Assembly (NCBI GenBank): GCA_014436445.1
Contig: GCA_014436445.1_4089.1
Length of the DNA: 26,673 bases
Direction: 5' to 3' (one strand)
Origin: a phage
Positions 1-25,469 of this stretch are shown here, piece after piece. How positions within the stretch are numbered: position 1 is the first letter of the stretch; every line of letters begins with the position of its first letter. A program made the translations under genes and the position numbers. The notes beneath the pieces are model-generated. The model saw only the letters and a program-made list of their open reading frames with translations, was not told the origin of the DNA and did no database searches.

Positions 1-148
1 CATACCTTTCCTGAAAGTTAGTTCCAATGAATAGTGCCATAATTAATTCACGCTTATAGGCAATACCACGGTCATGGGACTTATACATTATCATAGCCAT
101 GTTATTGATAAGTCTTTCGTGGTGCTGTTCTTTAGTTAAAATACGCAT
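1..148 (-). CDS. hypothetical protein, 5' portion (start codon at 148-146, continues past window start)
   Basis: ATG preceded by AAGGGAG Shine-Dalgarno; open frame with no stop to position 1 (MRILTKEQHHERLINNMAMIMYKSHDRGIAYKRELIMALF...). Not in the ORF track because incomplete. Confidence 0.4.
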   Translation of the reverse strand, partial: MRILTKEQHHERLINNMAMIMYKSHDRGIAYKRELIMALFIGTNFQERY

Positions 149-5513: not shown

Positions 5514-5768
5514 TCAACGTGATATTAGTTTTATTTTTTTATTGTATTGTTGGTGTTCATATAGATTAATTTTTCCAGTACTCTCGATCACTATTCTATT
5601 GTTAGTGTCTACGTCGATTACACGTAGTTTCCCGTTGCTTAACTTCCTAGGCAATAGACTACCATTAATAAACTCATTAGCAAGCTGTACGGCCTTTGTG
5701 ATGATTCTCTGTGGGGCTTTATAGTGTACCCGTAATACATTATCGTTTGATAGTTGAACCTTAATCAT
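5514..5768 (-). CDS. hypothetical protein (84 aa)
   Basis: Track ORF; preceded by the hairpin at 5783-5807. Confidence 0.5.
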   Translation of the reverse strand: MIKVQLSNDNVLRVHYKAPQRIITKAVQLANEFINGSLLPRKLSNGKLRVIDVDTNNRIVIESTGKINLYEHQQYNKKIKLISR

Positions 5769-7205: not shown

Positions 7206-7281
7206 ATCAGGGGAGGTTTTCGTATGTCTTACTCCTGGACTACTTAACGGGGAGTTACTTGTTTCGTTCCCCGTCCTGATG
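7206..7281 (-). ncRNA. candidate structured RNA or leader element, copy 1 (copy 2 at 17522-17597)
   Basis: A ~76-nt element bounded by the inverted termini ATCAGG...CCTGAT, with an internal CGGGGA...TCCCCG stem, transcribed from the TTGCAT/TATAAT promoter at about 7283-7320. It differs from the 17522-17597 copy at only 4 positions. Confidence 0.35.
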
Positions 7282-7462
7282 TAAAACATTATACTTGATT
7301 CTAAGTACAATGCAAGTACTTTTTAAAAATAGTTTTCAGTACTTGATAGTACTAGCCACCAGCATATAATAGATACATTTATGCACCCTGTGGGCTGATT
7401 TGTTTCTATGCGTATATAATAGCAAAGGGACTGACCGGAGTCAATCCCTTTTTTAAATCTTT

Positions 7463-7612
7463 TTAAACTTGTTTTGGGTTGCGATATGTGATAGCGTTCG
7501 GGTACATTTGTTTAATGTTATTCCATGCCTGGTTAACATTGTAACCACTTGATCGAATCAGTTGGTTACTACCGACACCTTGAAACACTACTTCAAATAA
7601 GAATTCTTTCAT
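7463..7612 (-). CDS. hypothetical small protein (49 aa)
   Basis: Not in the track. GAGGTG Shine-Dalgarno; followed by the terminator repeat at 7424-7453. Confidence 0.4.
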   Translation of the reverse strand: MKEFLFEVVFQGVGSNQLIRSSGYNVNQAWNNIKQMYPNAITYRNPKQV

Positions 7613-8454: not shown

Positions 8455-8811
8455 CTAGGATAAAATCATTATAGGATATTCACAGTTAATCAGTACTTCA
8501 AAACCAAAACTTTCATACCATTCTTTAAGATTAAACTCGTTATCTTCTCCCGTATCGCATTCTAAGATGATACAATCTGAATCATCGGCGGCATCAATAA
8601 AGGCATTCATTAATTCAGTACCTTCACCGTTACCGCGATTATCGGGATCAACATAAAGAGAATCAATAAACGCTACACGATCATAATCAAGATCCGGTGC
8701 AACAATGCCACGTTTAACAAACCAGTACTGCAATTGTGCTACTTTGCCTTGTACTTGATAGCCAGTGATCTCACCATTGTCTGTAGTACGCGTGATATGT
8801 TGTATACCCAT
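8455..8811 (-). CDS. small protein with a GNAT acetyltransferase-like motif (118 aa)
   Basis: The segment LYVDPDNRGNGEGTELMNAF resembles GNAT motif A (the acetyl-CoA-binding R/Q-x-x-G-x-G/A loop), but the protein is shorter than a typical GNAT. GAGGA Shine-Dalgarno; TTGACA/TATAAT promoter at 8835-8870. Confidence 0.5.
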   Translation of the reverse strand: MGIQHITRTTDNGEITGYQVQGKVAQLQYWFVKRGIVAPDLDYDRVAFIDSLYVDPDNRGNGEGTELMNAFIDAADDSDCIILECDTGEDNEFNLKEWYESFGFEVLINCEYPIMILS

Positions 8812-8874: not shown

Positions 8875-9132
8875 TTATCTCATAGATCTATGCCAACAAT
8901 TACGGGGATTGCGTTTGAATATGCTATCATGATCAGCCTGGCAAGTGATGCAGTACTTACACCCCTTAACGGCCAGGCGGCGATTCTCAGGGATTTTATC
9001 GCCGCAGTCGAGGCAATGTATCAGTGATTCTATTTGTGCGTTAATTTGCGTTCTAGCGTGGTTTACAGCGGCCTGAATCACTGCGTTAATCTCGTCTTGC
9101 TCGGCCCCGTCCTTCGCGAATCCAACAGCCAT
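8875..9132 (-). CDS. TraR/DksA-family C4 zinc-finger protein (85 aa)
   Basis: CLDCGDKIPENRRLAVKGCKYCITCQ matches the TraR/DksA C-x2-C-x17-C-x2-C zinc finger with the conserved IPE.RR core. GAGGT Shine-Dalgarno. Confidence 0.75.
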   Translation of the reverse strand: MAVGFAKDGAEQDEINAVIQAAVNHARTQINAQIESLIHCLDCGDKIPENRRLAVKGCKYCITCQADHDSIFKRNPRNCWHRSMR

Positions 9133-16844: not shown

Positions 16845-17453
16845 ATATGCGATAGATTCTACTACACCATCGATAACATTAAATTGATATTCGTTACCCT
16901 CAATCAGTCCTACAATGTTTTCAGTAGTAAACTGGTCTTCATAAGCATTTTCTAAATCACGGTACAACTTACGAGATAATTCACGGATCGTCTCAGTCAG
17001 TAAGTTTTCCAGATCCTCAGCCAATGCCGCCTGTTTTACAGTTAAATCAGTGTAGCGAGTATCAACGCAACCGCCTACCGTGTTTTCGTGTGCATAACGC
17101 GATTGGGAACGTTCTACACTCATTTCTAAATCATCTACGTTCAACAGGTGACGGATAGTGCGATACTTAGTTAACGCCTTAACCTTGCGTAAAAACTTCT
17201 CAGCGTCAACGTGGTCAGTACTGATTGATGCACCGTCACCTTGCGACCAAAAACCACTGTATTGCAATTCAGCTTCATCTATGCCGTATTCTGGCAGTAC
17301 TGTTTCTTTATAGTATTCCAGTACTGACTCAGCAAAGAAATTATCCTCACTTGCACGTTCCCGATCCCGAACCAGTTCGATAGCCGCCGTTTGTTGTTCT
17401 GCGTTCAGTTCAGAAAAAGCCATAACAAAAGTAGTAGTAGTGATAGTTTTCAT
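16842..17453 (-). CDS. hypothetical protein (203 aa)
   Basis: Track ORF; GAGGGT Shine-Dalgarno; tandem promoter module at 17455-17650 duplicated from 7140-7330. Confidence 0.65.
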   Translation of the reverse strand: MKTITTTTFVMAFSELNAEQQTAAIELVRDRERASEDNFFAESVLEYYKETVLPEYGIDEAELQYSGFWSQGDGASISTDHVDAEKFLRKVKALTKYRTIRHLLNVDDLEMSVERSQSRYAHENTVGGCVDTRYTDLTVKQAALAEDLENLLTETIRELSRKLYRDLENAYEDQFTTENIVGLIEGNEYQFNVIDGVVESIAY

Positions 17454-17752: not shown

Positions 17753-18019
17753 TTATTCAAGTACTGCAATCTTTTTAGTACTGTACACAGTAACGCGGTT
17801 GCCCTTGCGGTCGTGCTTTATTTCTACCACGCGACGCGATACACTATCAGGACGCTTTAAAGCAGATAGCCAGTACTGAATTGATCGGGCTGTACTTTGC
17901 TTTACTACGGCCCAACGTTTACCACGTTCAGATTGTACGCCCATATCTTTAAACGTCGCCCCGTCCTGGCGTGCGGCAATCCGAGCAAGTTCACGCGTTG
18001 CAAAGTATATAATATTCAT
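17753..18019 (-). CDS. hypothetical protein (88 aa), paralog of 5831..6226
   Basis: Track ORF 17753..18073 trimmed to the ATG at 18019 (MNIIYFATRELARIAAR...); promoter region paralogous to the one upstream of 5831..6226. Confidence 0.55.
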   Translation of the reverse strand: MNIIYFATRELARIAARQDGATFKDMGVQSERGKRWAVVKQSTARSIQYWLSALKRPDSVSRRVVEIKHDRKGNRVTVYSTKKIAVLE

Positions 18020-18101
18020 GCTGTTACCCCTATCGTTGTTGTATAAAAGAAATCTATTATAAAGTACTATCACCGTGCAATAGTACTTTTAATCTATTCT
18101 C

Positions 18102-18341
18102 TTACATTCCAACCATCGCCGCACGGATCGCAGTAGTGCTATACTTAAAGCCGTCCGGTGTTTTATCTTGTCCAGTCTGTTCTAAAAATAGCATCATATG
18201 ACGGGCCGCATCATTACGATTAGTGTTAGCGGCAATAAAGTCCTGGGCCAACCGGTATAATGATTCGTCGTTATTAATCCAAAGGCTTACATTCCATTGA
18301 GTTTTGTTTTTGTGTCCTAAGAACATTTTTGATTTAGCCAT
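18102..18341 (-). CDS. hypothetical protein (79 aa)
   Basis: Track ORF; AAGAGGA Shine-Dalgarno; leader hairpin GTGGGGAACTATTCCCCAC and TTGCAA/TATAAT promoter at 18362-18430. Confidence 0.6.
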   Translation of the reverse strand: MAKSKMFLGHKNKTQWNVSLWINNDESLYRLAQDFIAANTNRNDAARHMMLFLEQTGQDKTPDGFKYSTTAIRAAMVGM

Positions 18342-18435
18342 TTTTAAATCCTCTTAATTATAGTGGGGAACTATTCCCCACCTGATGTAAAGTATTATAC
18401 GCTTTTAAACTTAGTTTGCAAGTACTTTATTAAAC

Positions 18436-18798
18436 TTATTCGTAAATCTTGCCACTGTCAGCCCATACCAGGAAACGAGGCATATTATCCCATGCATCTT
18501 GTTTTAAGTTTAAGCCGTGCAATACTTCTGTACTTTCCATTCCTGGTACTGGCTTGCTATACACTGCAAACATTTCGCCCATGTACTGATAAGCCATCGT
18601 TAAATCAGTCTGGATCATCTTATGGATCATTGCATCCAGCATTGCAGTAGCGGCGTACTGTTCACGCTTAAGCGGCAACATTGCAATCAATTCCCGATAA
18701 GCTGCAATGTGAATCCGTACAGTCTCAGCGGGAAGATCTTTCATCTCTTCACGGAAAGAAACCAGGTTAAGCATGATAGTATTGATTTTAGTAGCCAT
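18436..18798 (-). CDS. hypothetical protein (120 aa)
   Basis: Track ORF; leader hairpin CGGGAGCGTCTCCCCCG and TTGCAA promoter at 18826-18890. Confidence 0.6.
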   Translation of the reverse strand: MATKINTIMLNLVSFREEMKDLPAETVRIHIAAYRELIAMLPLKREQYAATAMLDAMIHKMIQTDLTMAYQYMGEMFAVYSKPVPGMESTEVLHGLNLKQDAWDNMPRFLVWADSGKIYE

Positions 18799-19116
18799 CG
18801 TTTTAATCTCTTTTAAAAGTGAGTCGGGAGCGTCTCCCCCGTCTCGATGTAAAACATTCTACACCTTTCCCAATACTTTGCAAGTACTTTCTACAAATAC
18901 TTTTAAAATAGTTTTCTTTCTATATAGGAGTACTGGAACAATCCAGGGAGAACAATCTTTCAGTACTGAATCATTAAGATACCCGTAAAACGGCCTCAAT
19001 CGCATTCTAACGCATTAATACACCTAAGCTATACATTTGCACCGCCACCAGCTAACCAGGGCTTTACGGGCCGTTTAAACGCGTTAAATTATTTTCAATT
19101 ATTTTGTTTTTAGCTA

Positions 19117-19144
19117 TTGACTCAGCACCGAAAAAGCGTATAAT
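19117..19144 (+). promoter_or_regulatory. plus-strand promoter (TTGACT, 16 nt, TATAAT)
   Basis: Consensus elements within the non-coding block; no ORF downstream. Confidence 0.45.
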
Positions 19145-19332
19145 TACTACATAGACGCGAGAAAGCGGATACCCCTGGGGGTGCGGAATTACGCCCAAAA
19201 TTCAGTAAATTTAAAAAGGATACACTCCCGCACCTTAGCAGGTCATAGCACTTTCTCAGTACTGAATCATAGTACCATAGTACGCCCCAGGATGGCAAGC
19301 AAATTAATTAAAACTTTTTGCGTTTAGGGTAT

Positions 19333-19360
19333 TGCTTTATTTTTTCAGTACTGCTATAAT
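19333..19360 (+). promoter_or_regulatory. plus-strand promoter (TTGCTT, 16 nt, TATAAT)
   Basis: Followed by GAGAAAGACTCTAGCCCACCGGGTGCATAA, i.e. the same leader motif as at 15552. Confidence 0.45.
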
Positions 19361-19457
19361 ATTTTCATCAAGTCGAGAAAGACTCTAGCCCACCGGGTGC
19401 ATAATTGTATCTAAAATTCAGTACTAGATTATTTTTTAAAATTATTCATCCAGGCGG

Positions 19458-19486
19458 TTGACATTGCCCCCAGTTTATTAGATAAT
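19458..19486 (+). promoter_or_regulatory. plus-strand promoter (TTGACA, 17 nt, GATAAT) reading toward the iteron array
   Basis: Consensus elements; downstream lie a GGGGAAACCATCCCC hairpin and the iteron-like array. Confidence 0.45.
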
Positions 19487-19580
19487 GATTCCAGATTCAG
19501 AAAAATCTAACTCCAGATACTGCGGGGAAACCATCCCCACGCGGTAGGGGAACTATTGGAAAAACAAAATAAAATTTTGA

Positions 19581-19712
19581 TTTAGCCGTCTATACTTCCA
19601 GACGTGTAACCATCTAGCCGTTTAGCCGTCCAAACGTCTAGCAGTACAGCCATCTAGAAATCTAGCCATCCAGCCGCCTAGAGGGATAGCCATCTTTACT
19701 TCCAGCCATCTG
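19581..19712. repeat. iteron-like array of about 8 YAGCCRTC octamers with interspersed GTCTAG/CATCTAG
   Basis: TTTAGCCGTC occurs exactly twice (19581, 19621); TAGCCGTT, CAGCCATC, TAGCCATC (twice), CAGCCGCC and CAGCCATC follow within about 130 bp of non-coding DNA. Confidence 0.55.
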
Positions 19713-19881
19713 GAGGTCTAGACATCTCTACGTCTAAATTTAACCTAGGGTTACTACGCCCAAAATCCGTCAGTACTATACCATAGATCTATCTTTAAGA
19801 AGGGAGTATTCAGTACTCCCACAATAGCCCTCACTGTTACTGTAGGAGGATGAAGACTATCATGTAGTACTGAATACTGTT

Positions 19882-19911
19882 AGTGGATAATCCACCAGCT
19901 TGTGCTGGTGG
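19882..19911. promoter_or_regulatory. DnaA-box-like 9-mer inside palindrome TGGATAATCCA, followed by hairpin CCACCAGCTTGTGCTGGTGG
   Basis: AGTGGATAA matches the DnaA box (TGTGGATAA, the complement of TTATCCACA) at 8 of 9 positions; an 8-bp-stem hairpin lies immediately 3'. Confidence 0.3.
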
Positions 19912-20398
19912 CATAATGCGTTAGATTAATATCAGTACTGCTACCATTCTGTTAATAACAGTACTGTTCATATTACGAAAAAAGAGGTTATAAAAAGATG
20001 TACCACCCATAGGAGGAACTATCCTTTCAGTACTGTCTCACGACAGGAGGTAGAGTGAATGAATTGTTTGCGGCAACTCATCTCTCTATGTAGAACATTA
20101 TACAGTACTGAATCATAATGTCAATAGCTTTCTTTCATTATTCAGTACTGAAATCGTATAATCTGTATCGCTACAAAACTCATTATATCCCACAAATCCT
20201 ATATGTCCCAACGTAAATTTCAACTTTCGAAGATCCAACTTTTATTTCATAGGTACTCCAAAATTTTTAGGATCGAGATTTAGGATGGAGTACTAACCAA
20301 CTTTTTGCTGGAGCCTCAAGGGGTAATTGAATTTTACCCCGAAGGGTAAAGGGGTAATTGAAATTAAGGTGAAAGTAATAATTCAGTACTAATCATTG

Positions 20399-20628
20399 CG
20401 TGATTACTTTTGATTACATTTGATGTAATTTGCAAAATGGAAAAGGAGCTTGGAAACTACAAAGTACGGCAGACTTCCTCTGCCTACTTAGTGGCATATC
20501 AGTACTGCTACGTTCTTGATTAAACGTGAACATTCCTGTACTCTAGTACTCAATACTAATCACTACCGTGCGTATGAATGATTACATAAATGTTTATATA
20601 TGATTACTTATGACTACCTATGATTACG
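20399..20628. repeat. two clusters of helically phased (A)TGATTAC repeats (20399-20428 and 20578-20628)
   Basis: GATTAC at 20401 and 20411 plus GATGTAAT at 20421; ATGATTAC at 20578, 20601 and 20621 plus ATGACTAC at 20611, with 10-bp spacing in the second cluster. Confidence 0.5.
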
Positions 20629-20743
20629 GGGTTTAGCCTGGGGAGAATCCTAGTGATCGCATTTGTCCAGGCTGAATTTTAACATATGCAACATATGTTA
20701 AAGCCTGTATAATGCTTCCACTACGGAGCTTCCCCTAGCTATA

Positions 20744-20944
20744 TTACTTCCTATATATAATCATTAAGATATAGTAGTACTGATTGTACTGTACATTCTC
20801 TTTAATATTATAAGGGTCTATAGCAATCTCGGTACATCTGTTAAATGCATATCTATTAAATGCCAGTGGAATTATAGATCTAATCCATACTTGTTCATTT
20901 TCTTTTAGTTTACTTATATAGAATTCTTTATGTTCTTTATTCAT
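20744..20944 (-). CDS. small-protein paralog array, member 15 (66 aa)
   Basis: Track ORF; N-terminus MNKEHKEFY, central Cys motif (NRCTEIAI), C-terminus YYILMIIYRK. Confidence 0.6.
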   Translation of the reverse strand: MNKEHKEFYISKLKENEQVWIRSIIPLAFNRYAFNRCTEIAIDPYNIKENVQYNQYYYILMIIYRK

Positions 20945-20949
20945 ATTAG

Positions 20950-21135
20950 TTAGTGTCTGTATATAAGTAATAGTAAGAATACGTACTGCACATCTTCATC
21001 TTTAGTATTGAGTACTGTACGTATTGCGTCATTAAACAAGAATATAGTACTTGGGTCATGAGAATTTAAAGGGGTTCTGGGTACGGCATGTTTGTAGTTC
21101 CCTTTAACAAATTGTGTGTAGTATTCTCTATGCAT
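20950..21135 (-). CDS. small-protein paralog array, member 14 (61 aa)
   Basis: Track ORF; MHREYYTQF...LLLLIYRH. Confidence 0.6.
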   Translation of the reverse strand: MHREYYTQFVKGNYKHAVPRTPLNSHDPSTIFLFNDAIRTVLNTKDEDVQYVFLLLLIYRH

Positions 21136-21136
21136 A

Positions 21137-21322
21137 TTAGTACCTATATATTAGGGCGAGAATGTAGTACAATTCATATGGAATGTAATTTGGGGTGATC
21201 GCACACTGTGTATGGTAAATGAATTGTTCGGTATTTTTCTTATCCTTGATATCTATTGGGATTTGTGGTATAAGCATTTGGGAGTTTAGATCGAGATGGC
21301 TTAAGTAGAATTCTTTATGCAT
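21137..21322 (-). CDS. small-protein paralog array, member 13 (61 aa)
   Basis: Track ORF; MHKEFYLSHL...QCAI...YYILALIYRY. Confidence 0.6.
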   Translation of the reverse strand: MHKEFYLSHLDLNSQMLIPQIPIDIKDKKNTEQFIYHTQCAITPNYIPYELYYILALIYRY

Positions 21323-21331
21323 ATTGTTCTC

Positions 21332-21520
21332 TTAGAATACGAAAGCTAGGTACAGGGTATGATACAGTACTCGATGATAGCTGTCAAAATCTAGTATACA
21401 TGCTTTAGTGCACATAGTAAAGTACACTTTATCATTTTGTGCATTGATACCGCGAGGTTTATCTAATAGATTAGTTCTGAGGTACATTGGGAAATATTTT
21501 GTGTAGTATTCTTTATGCAT
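21332..21520 (-). CDS. small-protein paralog array, member 12 (62 aa)
   Basis: Track ORF 21332..21565 trimmed to the family-conserved start MHKEYYTKYF at 21520; ends ...YHTLYLAFVF. Confidence 0.6.
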   Translation of the reverse strand: MHKEYYTKYFPMYLRTNLLDKPRGINAQNDKVYFTMCTKACILDFDSYHRVLYHTLYLAFVF

Positions 21521-21521
21521 G

Positions 21522-21704
21522 TTAGTACCTGAATATAAGTAGGATAGTGTTATATAGCTGGTCATAACTACTACTATTTTCTATACTTCGTTCTATGCAG
21601 TTATTGAATCCCAGTACTGCCAAATCGTTATCCATAGGGACTTTATATCTGGCGTAGTGTTCAAAAATGCTGGGGAGAAATTGTGTGTAGTATTCTTTGT
21701 GCAT
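21522..21704 (-). CDS. small-protein paralog array, member 11 (60 aa)
   Basis: Track ORF; MHKEYYTQFLP...NNCIERSI...ILLIFRY. Confidence 0.6.
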   Translation of the reverse strand: MHKEYYTQFLPSIFEHYARYKVPMDNDLAVLGFNNCIERSIENSSSYDQLYNTILLIFRY

Positions 21705-21705
21705 A

Positions 21706-21891
21706 TTAGTACCTATATATTAGTAAAAGGATGTGATACAGTACTCGATTATAGTCGTCAATATATATCGAGGATTTAGTGCACTGAATGAAGTAGTCTT
21801 TTTCGTAGTTTTTTTCTATACCCAATGGTTCTGTTGGTACAAGGTGTTGGAGATACATTGGGAGTTTCTCTATGTAGTATTCTTTATACAT
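21706..21891 (-). CDS. small-protein paralog array, member 10 (61 aa)
   Basis: Track ORF; MYKEYYIEKLPMYLQ...QCTKSSI...YHILLLIYRY. Confidence 0.6.
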   Translation of the reverse strand: MYKEYYIEKLPMYLQHLVPTEPLGIEKNYEKDYFIQCTKSSIYIDDYNRVLYHILLLIYRY

Positions 21892-21900
21892 ATATTATCC

Positions 21901-22101
21901 TTAGTACTGGAACGCAAGGTACAGGGTGTGGTAAAGTTGTACTTGATAATTGTTTTCATTAGCTTCTTCATTAAGTACTTGTTCAGTACATGTACGGAAG
22001 TAATCAGCTTCATATATACAGTCAATACCGCGAGGTTCATCTTCTAATAGATTTCCTTGTAGAAACTTTGGTAGTTCTTTTATGTAGAATTCTTTATACA
22101 T
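21901..22101 (-). CDS. small-protein paralog array, member 9 (66 aa)
   Basis: Track ORF 21901..22164 trimmed to the family-conserved start MYKEFYIKELPKFLQ at 22101; ...RTCTEQVL...YHTLYLAFQY. Confidence 0.6.
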   Translation of the reverse strand: MYKEFYIKELPKFLQGNLLEDEPRGIDCIYEADYFRTCTEQVLNEEANENNYQVQLYHTLYLAFQY

Positions 22102-22765
22102 AGTTTGTAATATACGTAATGAGGTGATGCATTTTCTTATCAGTACTGATAATTTCCTGTACATGTTTTGTCAGATTGTACGCGTTTTTATAGAGTACTG
22201 GATTATCGATTACAGTACTGTACATGAATAGTTCTTCTTCCTGTAGTTCTTTGTGTTCTAGTTCTTTGAGGAATTGTAGTACTGTATCAGTTTCTTCTGT
22301 ACGTTGTGCTTGCCAGAAGTGCATATTCTCGTGTACTTTTTCTGCATCAGTAGAGTATATGCCACCCATTTGGAATTGTGCTGTATTGACATCGTGGGAG
22401 GTGTTACAATTCCCGAAGAAGTATGTATTCCCGAAGTATAGCATTAAAGTGCACGGGGTATTATCCAACTGCATATTGATGATGAAGGATGCGTTCTTTA
22501 GTACCTTTGTGCTCGTATTAGTACTCAATACTTTTAAATCAGTATTATAGATATTCATATAATGAACAGCTATATTATTTTTCTTCATGTACAATTCAAG
22601 GTTCTTTGATACGTTAACTCCATTTGTACTGGATTTTTCCTTTTTATTTCGTTTCTTTAGTACATTCGGGTGATACGTATATGCAGATGTAACTGATTCT
22701 GCCTGAATACTATTGAGGTACTTAAAGTGCTTAAGGTATTGTTTGCTGTGTGCATTAAGTTTCAT
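22094..22765 (-). CDS. 223-aa protein with an HExxH motif, embedded in the paralog array
   Basis: Track ORF; AAGGAAA Shine-Dalgarno; contains AEKVHENMHFWQA (HExxH, the zincin metallopeptidase signature); does not share the array-family termini. Confidence 0.55.
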   Translation of the reverse strand: MKLNAHSKQYLKHFKYLNSIQAESVTSAYTYHPNVLKKRNKKEKSSTNGVNVSKNLELYMKKNNIAVHYMNIYNTDLKVLSTNTSTKVLKNASFIINMQLDNTPCTLMLYFGNTYFFGNCNTSHDVNTAQFQMGGIYSTDAEKVHENMHFWQAQRTEETDTVLQFLKELEHKELQEEELFMYSTVIDNPVLYKNAYNLTKHVQEIISTDKKMHHLITYITNYV

Positions 22766-22775
22766 TTGGTTTCCT

Positions 22776-22955
22776 TTATATAGATGCCAGGGCGAGGATT
22801 TCCCTGTAGGGATTATCTTGTGTTAGTACAGCATAAATGCAGTTATTGAGATTAATATTTTTAGTACTTTTTGTTCCTAGTTTGTAGTACTTCACGAAGG
22901 TGTCGTACATGAAACGGTCTTTTATGGTTATACGTTCTCTATAGAATTGTTGCAT
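22776..22955 (-). CDS. small-protein paralog array, member 7 (59 aa; MQQFYRERITIKDRFMYDTFVKYYKLGTKSTKNINLNNCIYAVLTQDNPYREILALASI)
   Basis: Not in the track (59 aa). AAGGAA Shine-Dalgarno; central NNCIYAVL and C-terminal ILALASI fit the family. Confidence 0.5.
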   Translation of the reverse strand: MQQFYRERITIKDRFMYDTFVKYYKLGTKSTKNINLNNCIYAVLTQDNPYREILALASI

Positions 22956-22963
22956 AGTATTCC

Positions 22964-23146
22964 TTAAATAGCGATTAGTTTCATTACTTCTCTGTATGTG
23001 TACTTTTCGTTTTGTGCATCTCTTGTGACGACATATAGGAAGGTGTGTTTATCTTTTTTGTTCCCGCAATTGTAGAAAATATTGAACTTATTGAAGTTGA
23101 ATCTTTCGGCGTGTTGTAGTTTAGTTAAATAGAATTCTATATTCAT
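22964..23146 (-). CDS. small-protein paralog array, member 6 (60 aa)
   Basis: Track ORF; MNIEFYLTKL...YNCGN...MKLIAI. Confidence 0.55.
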   Translation of the reverse strand: MNIEFYLTKLQHAERFNFNKFNIFYNCGNKKDKHTFLYVVTRDAQNEKYTYREVMKLIAI

Positions 23147-23154
23147 TTTCTTCC

Positions 23155-23340
23155 TTACATTTCAATAAGTTTAAGTACTGCTCGGTACGTGTACTTAGTT
23201 GTTAGTGCTTCTTTAATAGAAATACAGAAGTAATGTTGTTTGTCTCTTATACTGCCGCGTTTGTAGTACCACACATGGGAGTTGTGACTGTACTTGTCTC
23301 TGTCGGATAGTTGTTGGTAGTAGTAGCTTATATGATTCAT
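23155..23340 (-). CDS. small-protein paralog array, member 5 (61 aa)
   Basis: Track ORF; MNHISYYYQQL...FCISIKEAL...LKLIEM. Confidence 0.55.
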   Translation of the reverse strand: MNHISYYYQQLSDRDKYSHNSHVWYYKRGSIRDKQHYFCISIKEALTTKYTYRAVLKLIEM

Positions 23341-23392
23341 TATAATGTAATTAGCCTTACTATATTAAAGTACTCGGTCCCTGGTGTACCTT

Positions 23393-23587
23393 TTAGAACT
23401 TAAAGATGAGGTTCAGGATAGAGCGGTACTTAGTTGCAGGGAACGTATGTTCTATTGCATAACGTGTCACCATCCTGAAATCGTAATTATAATACAGATT
23501 ATCCTTTCTCATAGGTGGTGCTAAAGAGAATGATAGCTGTTCTTGTTTGGGTAGTTTACTACAATAGAAATCTTTATGATTATTCAT
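23393..23587 (-). CDS. small-protein paralog array, member 4 (64 aa)
   Basis: Track ORF; MNNHKDFYCSKLPKQEQ...ILNLIFKF. Confidence 0.55.
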   Translation of the reverse strand: MNNHKDFYCSKLPKQEQLSFSLAPPMRKDNLYYNYDFRMVTRYAIEHTFPATKYRSILNLIFKF

Positions 23588-23789
23588 AGAAATATATTAG
23601 TCCTATTAAACCAGAGTACATAATATTTTTGTTATTACATTCGATTGCTTCTAGAGTACTACGTATACAATTATTAAAGCAATCTCTGGCGTGTGGTGTA
23701 TCTATACTTAAAGGTGATACACTCCTTAGAAACAATTGTTCTTCGTTGCTAAGGTATTTGGTGTAGAATTCTTTATGTTCAGTATTCAT
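23580..23789 (-). CDS. small-protein paralog array, member 3 (69 aa)
   Basis: Track ORF; MNTEHKEFYTKYLSNEEQ...NNCIRSTL...LIGLIYFYE; 8-nt overlap with member 4. Confidence 0.6.
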   Translation of the reverse strand: MNTEHKEFYTKYLSNEEQLFLRSVSPLSIDTPHARDCFNNCIRSTLEAIECNNKNIMYSGLIGLIYFYE

Positions 23790-23790
23790 A

Positions 23791-23994
23791 TTAGTACTCG
23801 ATTAAAAGGGCAAGGATATAATAGTATTGCATACTTTCTGCCCCTTGTAAAGCATTTCTTATGATATTATTCCTGTACGAGTTCAGGAGTTTAGGACAAC
23901 GTTTGTAGTGTATAATAGTATTTTGTGTATACAGTAGGCTTTCTCGTAGACCTTTTGTTGGTAGTGCATCGATGTAGTACTGTTCGATATTCAT
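23791..23994 (-). CDS. small-protein paralog array, member 2 (67 aa)
   Basis: Track ORF; MNIEQYYIDALP...YYILALLIEY. Confidence 0.6.
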   Translation of the reverse strand: MNIEQYYIDALPTKGLRESLLYTQNTIIHYKRCPKLLNSYRNNIIRNALQGAESMQYYYILALLIEY

Positions 23995-24218
23995 ATAGAT
24001 AGCAGTACTAAGATTTTTGATAATTGTTTATTGCTATCCCCGCAGATGTTGCTGTGTAAAATACTCACAATGAGGGTATCAATTGCATTGTTCATCATAA
24101 GGGTGCATCCTGGACTATTATAATTTTTTAGCTCAATTAGCCACGAACTATCCGAGAGAAACTCCCCGTACTCTAGTTCATTTAGAGTATTGAGGTAGTA
24201 CTTAAGAGTATTTGTCAT
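23991..24218 (-). CDS. small-protein paralog array, member 1 (75 aa), first gene after the array promoter
   Basis: Track ORF; AAGGAG Shine-Dalgarno; MTNTLKYYLNTL...PGCTLMMNNAI...ILVLLSI. Confidence 0.55.
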   Translation of the reverse strand: MTNTLKYYLNTLNELEYGEFLSDSSWLIELKNYNSPGCTLMMNNAIDTLIVSILHSNICGDSNKQLSKILVLLSI

Positions 24219-24274: not shown

Positions 24275-24304
24275 GTTTTCTTTATTGGGTAAATATGATA
24301 TAAT
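24275..24304 (+). promoter_or_regulatory. candidate TG-extended -10 promoter (TGATATAAT) for the first RCC1-like gene
   Basis: TGATATAAT at 24296-24304 about 16 nt before the GGAGGG Shine-Dalgarno; the -35 is poor. Confidence 0.35.
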
Positions 24305-24320
24305 GAATAAGGAGGGAATT

Positions 24321-25469
24321 ATGTTACCTTTTGCAAGAATGGTTAAGTACGGGAATATTGCCCCTGGTGATGATGGACGTTTTAAAATATATTCCAGTGA
24401 TTCCATGTATCTTCATGATACTTATACTGATAAGTTGTATGCATCTTCTGCGACGAATTGGGGTACTGGAACAGGTGTAGCATCGAGTAAATTTATTCTT
24501 TGTGCGGAGAATGTTAAACGAGTTCTATTGGAAGATAACAGTAGTGATTGTCAATTGTATGAAGAGAAAGGTACTGGAAAAGTTTTTATCACTGGTAACA
24601 CGAAGGCATTCACTGGTGTAACTGATAGAAAAACTTTGTGGACGGACTGTACTACGTGGATAACATCAAGTGGTATTAATGTTTCTGATATAAAATACAT
24701 GAGTAGTTTTTATGATATGAAGGTGAATTTGATAACAAACGATGGTACATTGTATTGTTGTGGAGCTAACAATATATCGAACATATCATCATTTGGTGAT
24801 GGCACAAACATTAATTCTTTTAACACATTCAAAAGAGTAGATACTATAACTTCGGTTAAAAAGGCAGTTGGTAACATTTATTTGCGAGAAGATAATACTT
24901 TATGGGGTTGTGGTTTTAACTATTACTACCAGTTGGGCACGGGTAATCAAACTTCTATTACTGGGGTGACGATGATTTCTTCGGATGTTATAGATTTTAA
25001 TGTAAGTTATCAGAGTACATTTTTTATCAAATCGGATAATAATTTGTACGCTTGTGGTAAACAGTTCGGTGCACAATATGGGAACGAATTTGGTACAGGT
25101 GGTACTTCTACATCTACAGATATACAATATCAAACTCCGACATTATTGAGTTCAGGAGTTTATACTCTATATACTTGTGTTGGTAACATGGCATCACATA
25201 TTGTCAAAGCAGATGAAGTTCTATATGCTTCTGGAACGAATGGGTTTGGGCAATTAGGTGTTGGTAATAATAATAATCAGTACTCCTATACTCCTTCTTA
25301 TACTTCTTTTAATAGTTCGTGTGATTTGGTACGCAGTCCATCTGGATCACTTATACTTACGGATACTGGAAAATTATATTATTGTGGCATTGCAATAGTA
25401 GTAATGGGTGGTATTTCTGGACAGAACGTTCTTAATTATACAGAAGTAGATATGTCATTTATACAATGA
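24321..25469 (+). CDS. RCC1-like repeat (beta-propeller) protein, paralog 1 (382 aa)
   Basis: Track ORF 24285..25469 trimmed to the ATG at 24321 (GGAGGG Shine-Dalgarno; identical start context to paralog 2). Repeats fit the RCC1 blade signature: TLYCCGANN...FGDG, TLWGCGFNYYYQLGTG, NLYACGKQFGAQYGNEFGTG, VLYASGTNGFGQLGVG, KLYYCG. Confidence 0.7.
   Translation: MLPFARMVKYGNIAPGDDGRFKIYSSDSMYLHDTYTDKLYASSATNWGTGTGVASSKFILCAENVKRVLLEDNSSDCQLYEEKGTGKVFITGNTKAFTGVTDRKTLWTDCTTWITSSGINVSDIKYMSSFYDMKVNLITNDGTLYCCGANNISNISSFGDGTNINSFNTFKRVDTITSVKKAVGNIYLREDNTLWGCGFNYYYQLGTGNQTSITGVTMISSDVIDFNVSYQSTFFIKSDNNLYACGKQFGAQYGNEFGTGGTSTSTDIQYQTPTLLSSGVYTLYTCVGNMASHIVKADEVLYASGTNGFGQLGVGNNNNQYSYTPSYTSFNSSCDLVRSPSGSLILTDTGKLYYCGIAIVVMGGISGQNVLNYTEVDMSFIQ

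Follow-up and report, generated by a model that had tools for sequence, protein, structure and literature searches.

What is the function of a cluster of short direct repeats that lies in non-coding DNA near the end of a phage genome? We addressed this question for a phage sequence of 26,673 nucleotides, analyzed over its whole length and referred to here as the window. An initial annotation of this DNA had described a cluster of YAGCCRTC octamers and interpreted it as a set of iterons, the sites at which an initiator protein binds a replication origin. The cluster and its coordinates proved to be correct. The window contains 9 copies of the octamer against 1.5 expected, a number that was reached in 0 of 100 shuffles of the window, and six of the nine copies lie within 19583-19710. 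The 10-mer TTTAGCCGTC, which had been noted as an exact repeat, has just two occurrences in the window, at 19581 and 19621. An octamer of similar density throughout the DNA had been named as the outcome that would speak against a discrete site; the octamer is not dispersed through the window, so the description holds on its own test.

The direct-repeat array is therefore real, as described, and its extent had been understated: it comprises 19 phased units and reaches 19735 (Table 1). On the plus strand, the units read, in order, AGCCGTCT ATACTTCC AGACGTGT AACCATCT AGCCGTTT AGCCGTCC AAACGTCT AGCAGTAC AGCCATCT AGAAATCT, followed by AGCCATCC AGCCGCCT AGAGGGAT AGCCATCT TTACTTCC AGCCATCT GGAGGTCT AGACATCT CTACGTCT. 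GTCTAG and CATCTAG, previously thought to be interleaved with the octamers, are present, but as the junctions of neighboring units and not as elements of their own. Autocorrelation analysis gave an identity of 0.53 at a lag of 8 bp within the array, compared to a window mean of 0.27 (sd 0.04), and the identities at lags of 16, 24, 32 and 40 bp were equal to or above the lag-8 value. This 8-bp periodicity is confined to the array locus in the 26.7-kb window tested. The array sits in a non-coding stretch of ~1.7 kb in the terminal region, with no ORF of at least 30 aa (codons) between 19327 and 20113. Its GC content of 0.455 exceeds that of the flanks and makes it the most GC-rich part of the region. 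A tRNA scan of the window returned no hits.

Shifting the register of the octamer by three bases converts the repeats into units such as AGCCGTCT, AGACGTGT, AAACGTCT, AGACATCT and AGCCATCT, which are close to the met-box consensus AGACGTCT. The operators of the methionine repressor MetJ are built from tandem 8-bp met boxes at contiguous spacing (PMC4239095, PMC2775130), and E. coli MetJ binds as one dimer per 8-bp box of this consensus. We scored the window with a symmetrised half-metbox matrix and the site rule of Augustus & Spicer 2011 (PMC3228920), under which no box may score below a quarter of the consensus and the site as a whole must score no less than the consensus. By this matrix, 16 of the 19 units score at least 3.15 bits and the array totals 113 bits. 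It is the sole site in the 26.7 kb that passes the published rule, which it does with 7, 4 and 4 consecutive boxes in a common phase. As a control, the 6.3-kb metJ-metF region of E. coli yielded the metBJ (31 bits) and metF (25 bits) operators and nothing else. Shuffled versions of the window (n = 200) reached a maximum of 20 bits. Since shuffling destroys any repeat, simulated tandem-octamer arrays of equal degeneracy are the fairer control: among 20,000 of these, none reached 113 bits and 0.05% reached 60 bits. At the level of sequence, the resemblance to the met box is specific and is not a by-product of being an octamer repeat.

The base preferences within the array were compared to those of natural MetJ boxes. 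Position 1 is A more often than G, position 2 is G more often than A or T, and position 4 is C more often than T, with the complementary purine at position 5; positions 6 and 7 are T and C, respectively, and position 8 is T more often than C. The second choices of the array copy those of natural MetJ boxes at positions 1, 2 and 4-8. Position 3 is C in ~50% of units on one strand (AGCC) and otherwise A, never T and almost never G, in comparison to 87% A and 10% C in natural met boxes (PMC3228920). This bias could stem from a different binder or from a founder effect. Box quality in the array is 6-10 bits per box versus 6-8 in natural operators. In its 8-bp unit, contiguous head-to-tail order and tolerated substitutions, the array is like the E. 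coli metF and metBJ operators. Unlike the E. coli operators, which contain 2-5 boxes (5 in metF), it has 19 boxes, and the arrays that we found in other phages range from 9 to 36 units. It also differs in the excess of C at position 3 and in its location in a phage terminal repeat, away from methionine genes and their promoters. Natural met boxes are further recognized by their context: they lie in promoters of methionine-related genes, as a rule no more than ~75 bp from the start codon. The array fails on this point, lying outside any methionine-gene promoter. As judged from its bases, the array is a MetJ operator in unit and architecture, several-fold longer than the known ones and in a wholly new context.

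The tetranucleotide CTAG is rare in the window (38 copies versus 90 expected), yet 7 copies lie inside the 150-bp array, each at the junction between two met boxes. GATC occurs at expectation (87 versus 90). CTAG at 8-bp spacing is also used in the sites of TrpR. This repressor was ruled out as a candidate; the CTAG flanks here are TCTAGM and not ACTAGT.

To which part of the phage genome does the array belong? The window region is 88-93% identical to the 121Q/PBECO4-like jumbo coliphages of the genus Asteriusvirus. Among these, fEgEco12 has an experimentally confirmed left terminus, which maps onto the minus strand of the window (Table 1). From this point the terminal repeat extends toward lower coordinates, and the unique right end of the genome lies to the right; thus, the window assembly either is collapsed or runs through a concatemer junction. 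Relative to the left genome end, the array is 753-904 bp inward, within a direct terminal repeat of ~21 kb, and each virion DNA should therefore carry two copies of it. In the records of relatives with determined ends, the homologous array is likewise found ~700-1060 bp from the record start, with two copies per record.

Table 1 Positions of the array, of neighboring features in the window and of the arrays found in other phages.
Feature	Sequence	Position	Strand	Description
Met-box-like tandem array	Window	19584..19735	+	19 contiguous 8-bp units, strict register, no phase break
Conserved flanking motif CCAATAGTTCCCCTACCGCG	Window	19540..19559	-	~24 bp from interior ("cap") end of array
Conserved flanking motif ATTTTGGGCGTA	Window	19755..19766	-	Terminus side of array; second copy at 19190-19201
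Sigma-70-like promoter, TTGACA-17-GATAAT	Window	19458..19486	+	Reads through array toward genome end
Sigma-70-like promoter, perfect consensus TTGACA-16-TATAAT	Window	20097..20124	-	365-392 bp from terminus; reads inward to array
Inverted Chi octamer pair CCACCAGC-ttgt-GCTGGTGG	Window	19892..19911	.	Hairpin ~580 bp from terminus, between inward promoter and array
Left physical genome end (left boundary of direct terminal repeat)	Window	20488	-	First fEgEco12 bases match here
Chi octamers	Window	1931, 3731, 5135, 7356, 8275, 9736, 14242, 19045, 19892	-	
Chi octamer	Window	19904	+	
Met-box array	CBB, BF, Erwinia SNUABM_12, XbC2 (jumbo)	Start 648-685 bp from record start		15-17 units
Met-box array	GAP32, fHe-Yen9-04, two IMG/VR jumbo contigs			Same array; record start not a determined terminus
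Met-box array	Providencia PR1 (T5-like)	End 770 bp from annotated repeat boundary		9 boxes, 88 bits
Met-box array	Vibrio Pontus (T5-like)			15 boxes
Met-box array	Aeromonas AhSzq-1 (T5-like)			28 boxes, 221 bits
Met-box array	PGT2 and phiKT (T7-like)	38-109		9 boxes within exact 260-bp terminal repeat
Met-box array	Metagenomic viral contig IMGVR_UViG_3300031658_004036 (L039)	7257-7544		36 contiguous AGATGTCY units, 356 bits

Comparable arrays are present in three phage families (Table 1). Within Asteriusvirus, arrays of 12, 16, 18, 19 or 24 units lie between conserved flanks; they vary by whole units, and the positions that define the box are fixed. CBB, BF, SNUABM_12 and XbC2 are too diverged from the window for BLAST to align them outside the array. 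Among T5-like phages, PSTCR5 also has a met-box array, and in PR1, Pontus and AhSzq-1 the array occupies the region equivalent to T5 Repeat Region 3. T5 itself has no met-box array. An exact 19-mer "cap", AGACGTTTAGACGGCTAAA, is found at one array end in members of all three families. This cap always faces the interior of the terminal repeat, and the opposite end of the array faces the nearest repeat boundary. The distance to the terminus is 38 bp in PGT2 and 648-773 bp, measured from the array start to the record start, in six jumbo phage records (fEgEco12, vB_Ec-M-J, CBB, XbC2, BF and SNUABM_12), in five of which the record start is a determined terminus; the terminus of BF was inferred in this analysis, and SNUABM_12 is deposited as a circular record. 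In PR1, 770 bp separate the array end from the repeat boundary as annotated in its record. With this spread, from 38 to ~770 bp, a rigid architectural role at the cut site is less likely. A search for termini data on Thalassavirus and AhSzq-1 returned nothing useful.

The survey rests on BLAST and two pattern scans, and a degenerate-pattern scan of IMG/VR returned 4 loci. The longest and most regular met-box array that we found is on a 17-kb metagenomic contig (L039), where it lies ~90 bp from the contig end and consists of nearly identical units. The array had no BLAST match in 5,426 E. coli genomes or 72,556 plasmids, and long met-box arrays appear to be phage-specific at that BLAST sensitivity. 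Full-text searches that paired MetJ or met boxes with phages, with terminal repeats or with host-factor screens yielded no relevant paper, and the passages retrieved from the CBB, fEgEco12 and XbC2 genome papers make no mention of the array.

These observations bear on the interpretation of the array as iterons at a phage origin, to which a replication initiator would bind and where the upstream promoter might provide priming. The array does consist of direct repeats downstream of a strong promoter, and some phage origins combine a promoter with repeats. The plus-strand promoter in the initial annotation was found as described (TTGACA-17-GATAAT, 19458-19486), but it is kept in the 121Q-like genus only and is absent from the equivalent place in CBB and BF. 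The array units are 8 bp long and contiguous, rather than ~17-22 bp long and helically phased, and they match the MetJ met box instead. There is no DnaA box within 2 kb of the array, the nearest matches being at 17089 and 24053, nor is there an AT-rich unwinding segment, as the array is locally GC-rich. No Rep-like gene was recognized among the 30 window ORFs, which counts for little given that most of them are unassignable. Placement and polarity of the array relative to the genome terminus are fixed across several phage families, and a T7-like phage has the same array within its 260-bp terminal repeat. We consider an origin very improbable and retain from the earlier interpretation that the clustered direct repeats form a putative protein-binding site.

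It is similarly hard to believe that the array acts as RNA, in the form of a repeat-containing non-coding transcript or protein sponge, or that it is a functionless minisatellite generated by slippage. Both strands are probably transcribed from flanking promoters, and the minus strand folds with a z-score of -2.8. However, the quasi-palindromic units make fold stability expected, the plus strand reaches a z-score of only -1.5 with the best structure making up 0.1% of the ensemble, and folding of both strands of the array gave no convincing structure. Rfam has no match in the scanned region (18000-21500) beyond a chance miRNA match (E = 0.53). Gains and losses of whole units are the kind of change that slippage generates. 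Against this, unit number and order vary freely but the box-critical positions stay fixed, and convergence on the met-box consensus in three phage families would not be expected of a satellite evolving neutrally.

The surroundings of the array are also conserved (Table 1). The sequence CCAWTAGYTCCCCTWCCGCG is at the equivalent position in fEgEco12, vB_Ec-M-J, CBB, BF, SNUABM_12, XbC2, GAP32, fHe-Yen9-04 and the two IMG/VR jumbo contigs, and ATTTTGGGYGTA is located 10-35 bp before the array in fEgEco12, vB_Ec-M-J, CBB, BF, SNUABM_12, GAP32 and EJP2. Jumbo-phage arrays thus have ATTTTGGGYGTA toward the terminus and CCAWTAGYTCCCCTWCCGCG toward the interior. An inward promoter 270-400 bp from the terminus is present in all jumbo genera examined, and the order from the terminus inward is this sigma-70-like promoter, the array, more promoters and the first gene at 1.4-1.8 kb. 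In the window, no ORF of at least 30 aa lies downstream of the inward promoter (20097-20124). Its transcript would be ~200 nt long, with CCUCC stretches, ending near the Chi hairpin (~19890), and may be an early non-coding RNA. The hairpin is shared with fEgEco12 and vB_Ec-M-J; it is present in Asteriusvirus and absent from CBB and BF. By coordinate arithmetic, a minus-strand terminator predicted in the G17 record corresponds to approximately 19878-19897 of the window and overlaps the Chi hairpin.

Which protein would bind such an array? The phages that carry it infect Escherichia, Salmonella, Erwinia, Serratia, Pectobacterium, Cronobacter, Yersinia, Providencia, Vibrio and Aeromonas. All of these genera belong to the orders Enterobacterales, Vibrionales and Aeromonadales, in which MetJ is found throughout and its motif is conserved (PMC4239095), and the E. 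coli host encodes metJ. Nearly all hosts thus belong to MetJ-bearing orders, the exception being that of XbC2, which was isolated on Xanthomonas and keeps an intact array although Xanthomonadales are without MetJ (PMC4239095). The GC content of XbC2 is 37.5%, that of the reported host ~65%, and the phage shares more than 50% similarity with enterobacterial phages, so a recent host shift or a misidentified host is possible. On the phage side, a tblastn search with E. coli MetJ against 50,697 phage records returned bacterial contaminants only and no phage homolog. Pfam scans of the 30 window ORFs, and of 10 ORFs beside arrays in five other phages, found no ribbon-helix-helix (RHH) or MetJ-like domain and no further recognizable DNA-binding family. 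With no MetJ gene found in phages, we propose that the protein comes from the host. A host factor would be the simplest reason for the presence of one and the same array in three families whose packaging and replication genes are unrelated.

Alternatively, the 8-bp repeats may be read by a phage-encoded protein, such as an unrecognized RHH protein or a small terminase subunit, with the array serving as a pac-like or centromere-like site that resembles met boxes. The strand-asymmetric AGCC half-site is atypical for MetJ, the XbC2 array is kept in a host order without MetJ, the array adjoins the packaging terminus, and most window ORFs have no recognizable family (21 of the 30 scanned matched none). 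Contiguous short repeats are moreover typical of RHH centromere and operator binders such as omega and ParG. In the omega heptads of pSM19035 and the ParG/ParR centromere repeats, very short contiguous repeats each bind one RHH dimer in a cooperative spiral, and the met-box array shares with them the contiguous short direct repeats. The omega heptads differ in their 7-bp unit and sequence, in having their binder encoded adjacently and in their ParA partner; no RHH or ParA Pfam match was found in the window ORFs or beside the arrays in other phages. The terminases of the three families are unrelated and no identified DNA-binding gene is common to them. Together with the lack of RHH domains and MetJ homologs in the searches above, the detailed copying of the secondary base preferences of MetJ sites, and hosts that come almost exclusively from MetJ-bearing orders, this makes a phage-encoded reader unlikely in our assessment.

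Returning to host MetJ, we infer its binding and the role of the array from the met-box identity, phase, position and distribution described above. Taken together, these make it probable that the array is a giant MetJ-type operator, whose most likely role is that of a cis-acting, SAM-dependent nucleoprotein landmark at the boundary of the terminal repeat. By analogy to MetJ-operator complexes (PDB 1cma, 1mj2), each box would be occupied by one SAM-loaded host MetJ dimer. Several MetJ dimers are known to be arranged around adjacent boxes (PMC2775130). Adjoining dimers on the array would be expected to contact each other, which would make binding cooperative, and ~150 bp of DNA would be coated by a continuous MetJ protein spiral. 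The resulting landmark could serve DNA entry or pausing, end handling or concatemer processing, and the sequestration of MetJ would be an unavoidable side effect after genome replication.

The region equivalent to the array in T5 provides a point of comparison. T5 Repeat Region 3 is untranslated and holds the injection-stop signal along with clusters of host DnaA boxes (Davison, bioRxiv 10.1101/866236). Both it and the array region are untranslated, repeat-rich and inside the terminal repeat near its boundary, with clustered sites for host proteins, which in the array are predicted. They differ in that the T5 DnaA boxes are in inverted repeats (IRD'-spacer-IRC') without met boxes, whereas the jumbo phage has no DnaA boxes within 2 kb. 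Two-step DNA transfer is also a feature of T5 that is not known for jumbo phages. A near-copy of the T5 DRC repeat, GTCGGATTTGCAC, lies beside the met-box array of Pontus (L006, ~440-470), and a G-rich stretch like the T5 DRD repeats, GAGATTTGGGGAGGCT, lies beside that of AhSzq-1 (L007, ~2660-2700). These DRC- and DRD-like repeats place the two arrays in the region equivalent to the T5 injection stop. Other precedents concern phage ends more generally. At lambda cosB, IHF provides an example of a host-factor site in a packaging region, and short repeats flank the T7 terminal repeat. Like the array, these elements lie beside the ends of phages with defined termini; their proteins and sequences differ from those considered here. 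A literature search found no report of a role for MetJ in packaging.

The same boxes might instead work as a MetJ sink. Replicated to thousands, they would titrate the repressor and derepress the host methionine/SAM regulon (metA, metB, metC, metE, metF, metK and others) in support of phage protein synthesis and DNA methylation. That met operators present in many copies can titrate MetJ is known, and the 2 x 19 boxes per virion genome are, by estimate, roughly the count of the whole host met regulon. Box quality equals or exceeds that of natural operators, and XbC2 and relatives encode several SAM-dependent methyltransferases. A sink, however, has no need for a fixed position and polarity beside the repeat boundary in three families, nor for conserved flanking motifs. 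Early in infection a single genome carries too few boxes, and metJ autoregulation buffers titration. Late derepression of host genes would also be pointless in T5-like and T7-like infections, since within minutes these phages break down the host DNA or silence the host RNA polymerase. We therefore regard titration as the purpose of the array as rather improbable, and favor a cis-acting role because of the conserved placement and the positional equivalence to the T5 injection-stop region.

The arrays beside terminal repeats in other phage families suggest that phages recruit a host metabolic repressor to their DNA ends. More tentatively, and as a possibility that we hold at lower confidence than the operator itself, three unrelated families (Rak2-like jumbo myoviruses, T5-like siphoviruses and T7-like podoviruses) may have co-opted MetJ as a structural host factor. 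MetJ·SAM, assembled cooperatively into a filament on a polar array at the repeat boundary, would then form a landmark or checkpoint for an end transaction, such as a transfer pause, end protection or concatemer cutting, coupled to the SAM status of the cell. MetJ is a textbook repressor with recognized sites of 2-5 boxes at methionine genes, and, if the proposal is true, the 9-36 perfectly phased boxes at the genome ends of virulent phages from three families would give it a role that had not been suspected, as a host factor for phages or as their target. The proposal would also offer a testable handle on the function of the conserved non-coding repeats at the ends of terminal-repeat phages, and on what defines the injection stop and the terminal-repeat boundary in T5-like phages. 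Finally, it would link phage DNA handling to SAM, which matters in restriction, BREX and the SAM-degrading enzymes of phages.

Several other features of the window were observed. Nine copies of the RecBCD Chi octamer GCTGGTGG lie on the minus strand and a single one on the plus strand, compared to ~0.4 expected per strand (Table 1). This orientation is what would stop RecBCD entering from either physical genome end. The palindrome AGTACT is present in 153 copies versus 8.8 expected, and CAGTACTG in 34 versus 0.3 expected (window 1-24300). AGTACT has a density of ~6 per kb, which falls to 0-3 per kb past 24 kb, and is mostly intergenic: the larger ORFs take up 53% of the sequence, and 75 of 110 copies lie outside them. 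The terminal region of CBB is likewise rich in AGTACT, which may be part of early promoters (AAGTACTTGAC...). A family of at least 14 paralogous ORFs in tandem, 59-87 aa long and encoded on the minus strand (20744-24218), fills the unique right end just outside the terminal repeat; the seven that were aligned (20744-22164) start with MHKEYY/MNxEFY and end with LIYRY. Pfam matches at 5517-5768, 8458-8811, 8878-9132 and 24285-25466 correspond to a ParE-like toxin domain, a GNAT acetyltransferase, a DksA/TraR zinc finger and an RCC1-repeat protein, respectively. The first three are among the early genes, and the RCC1-repeat protein, of 394 aa, is encoded outside the repeat.
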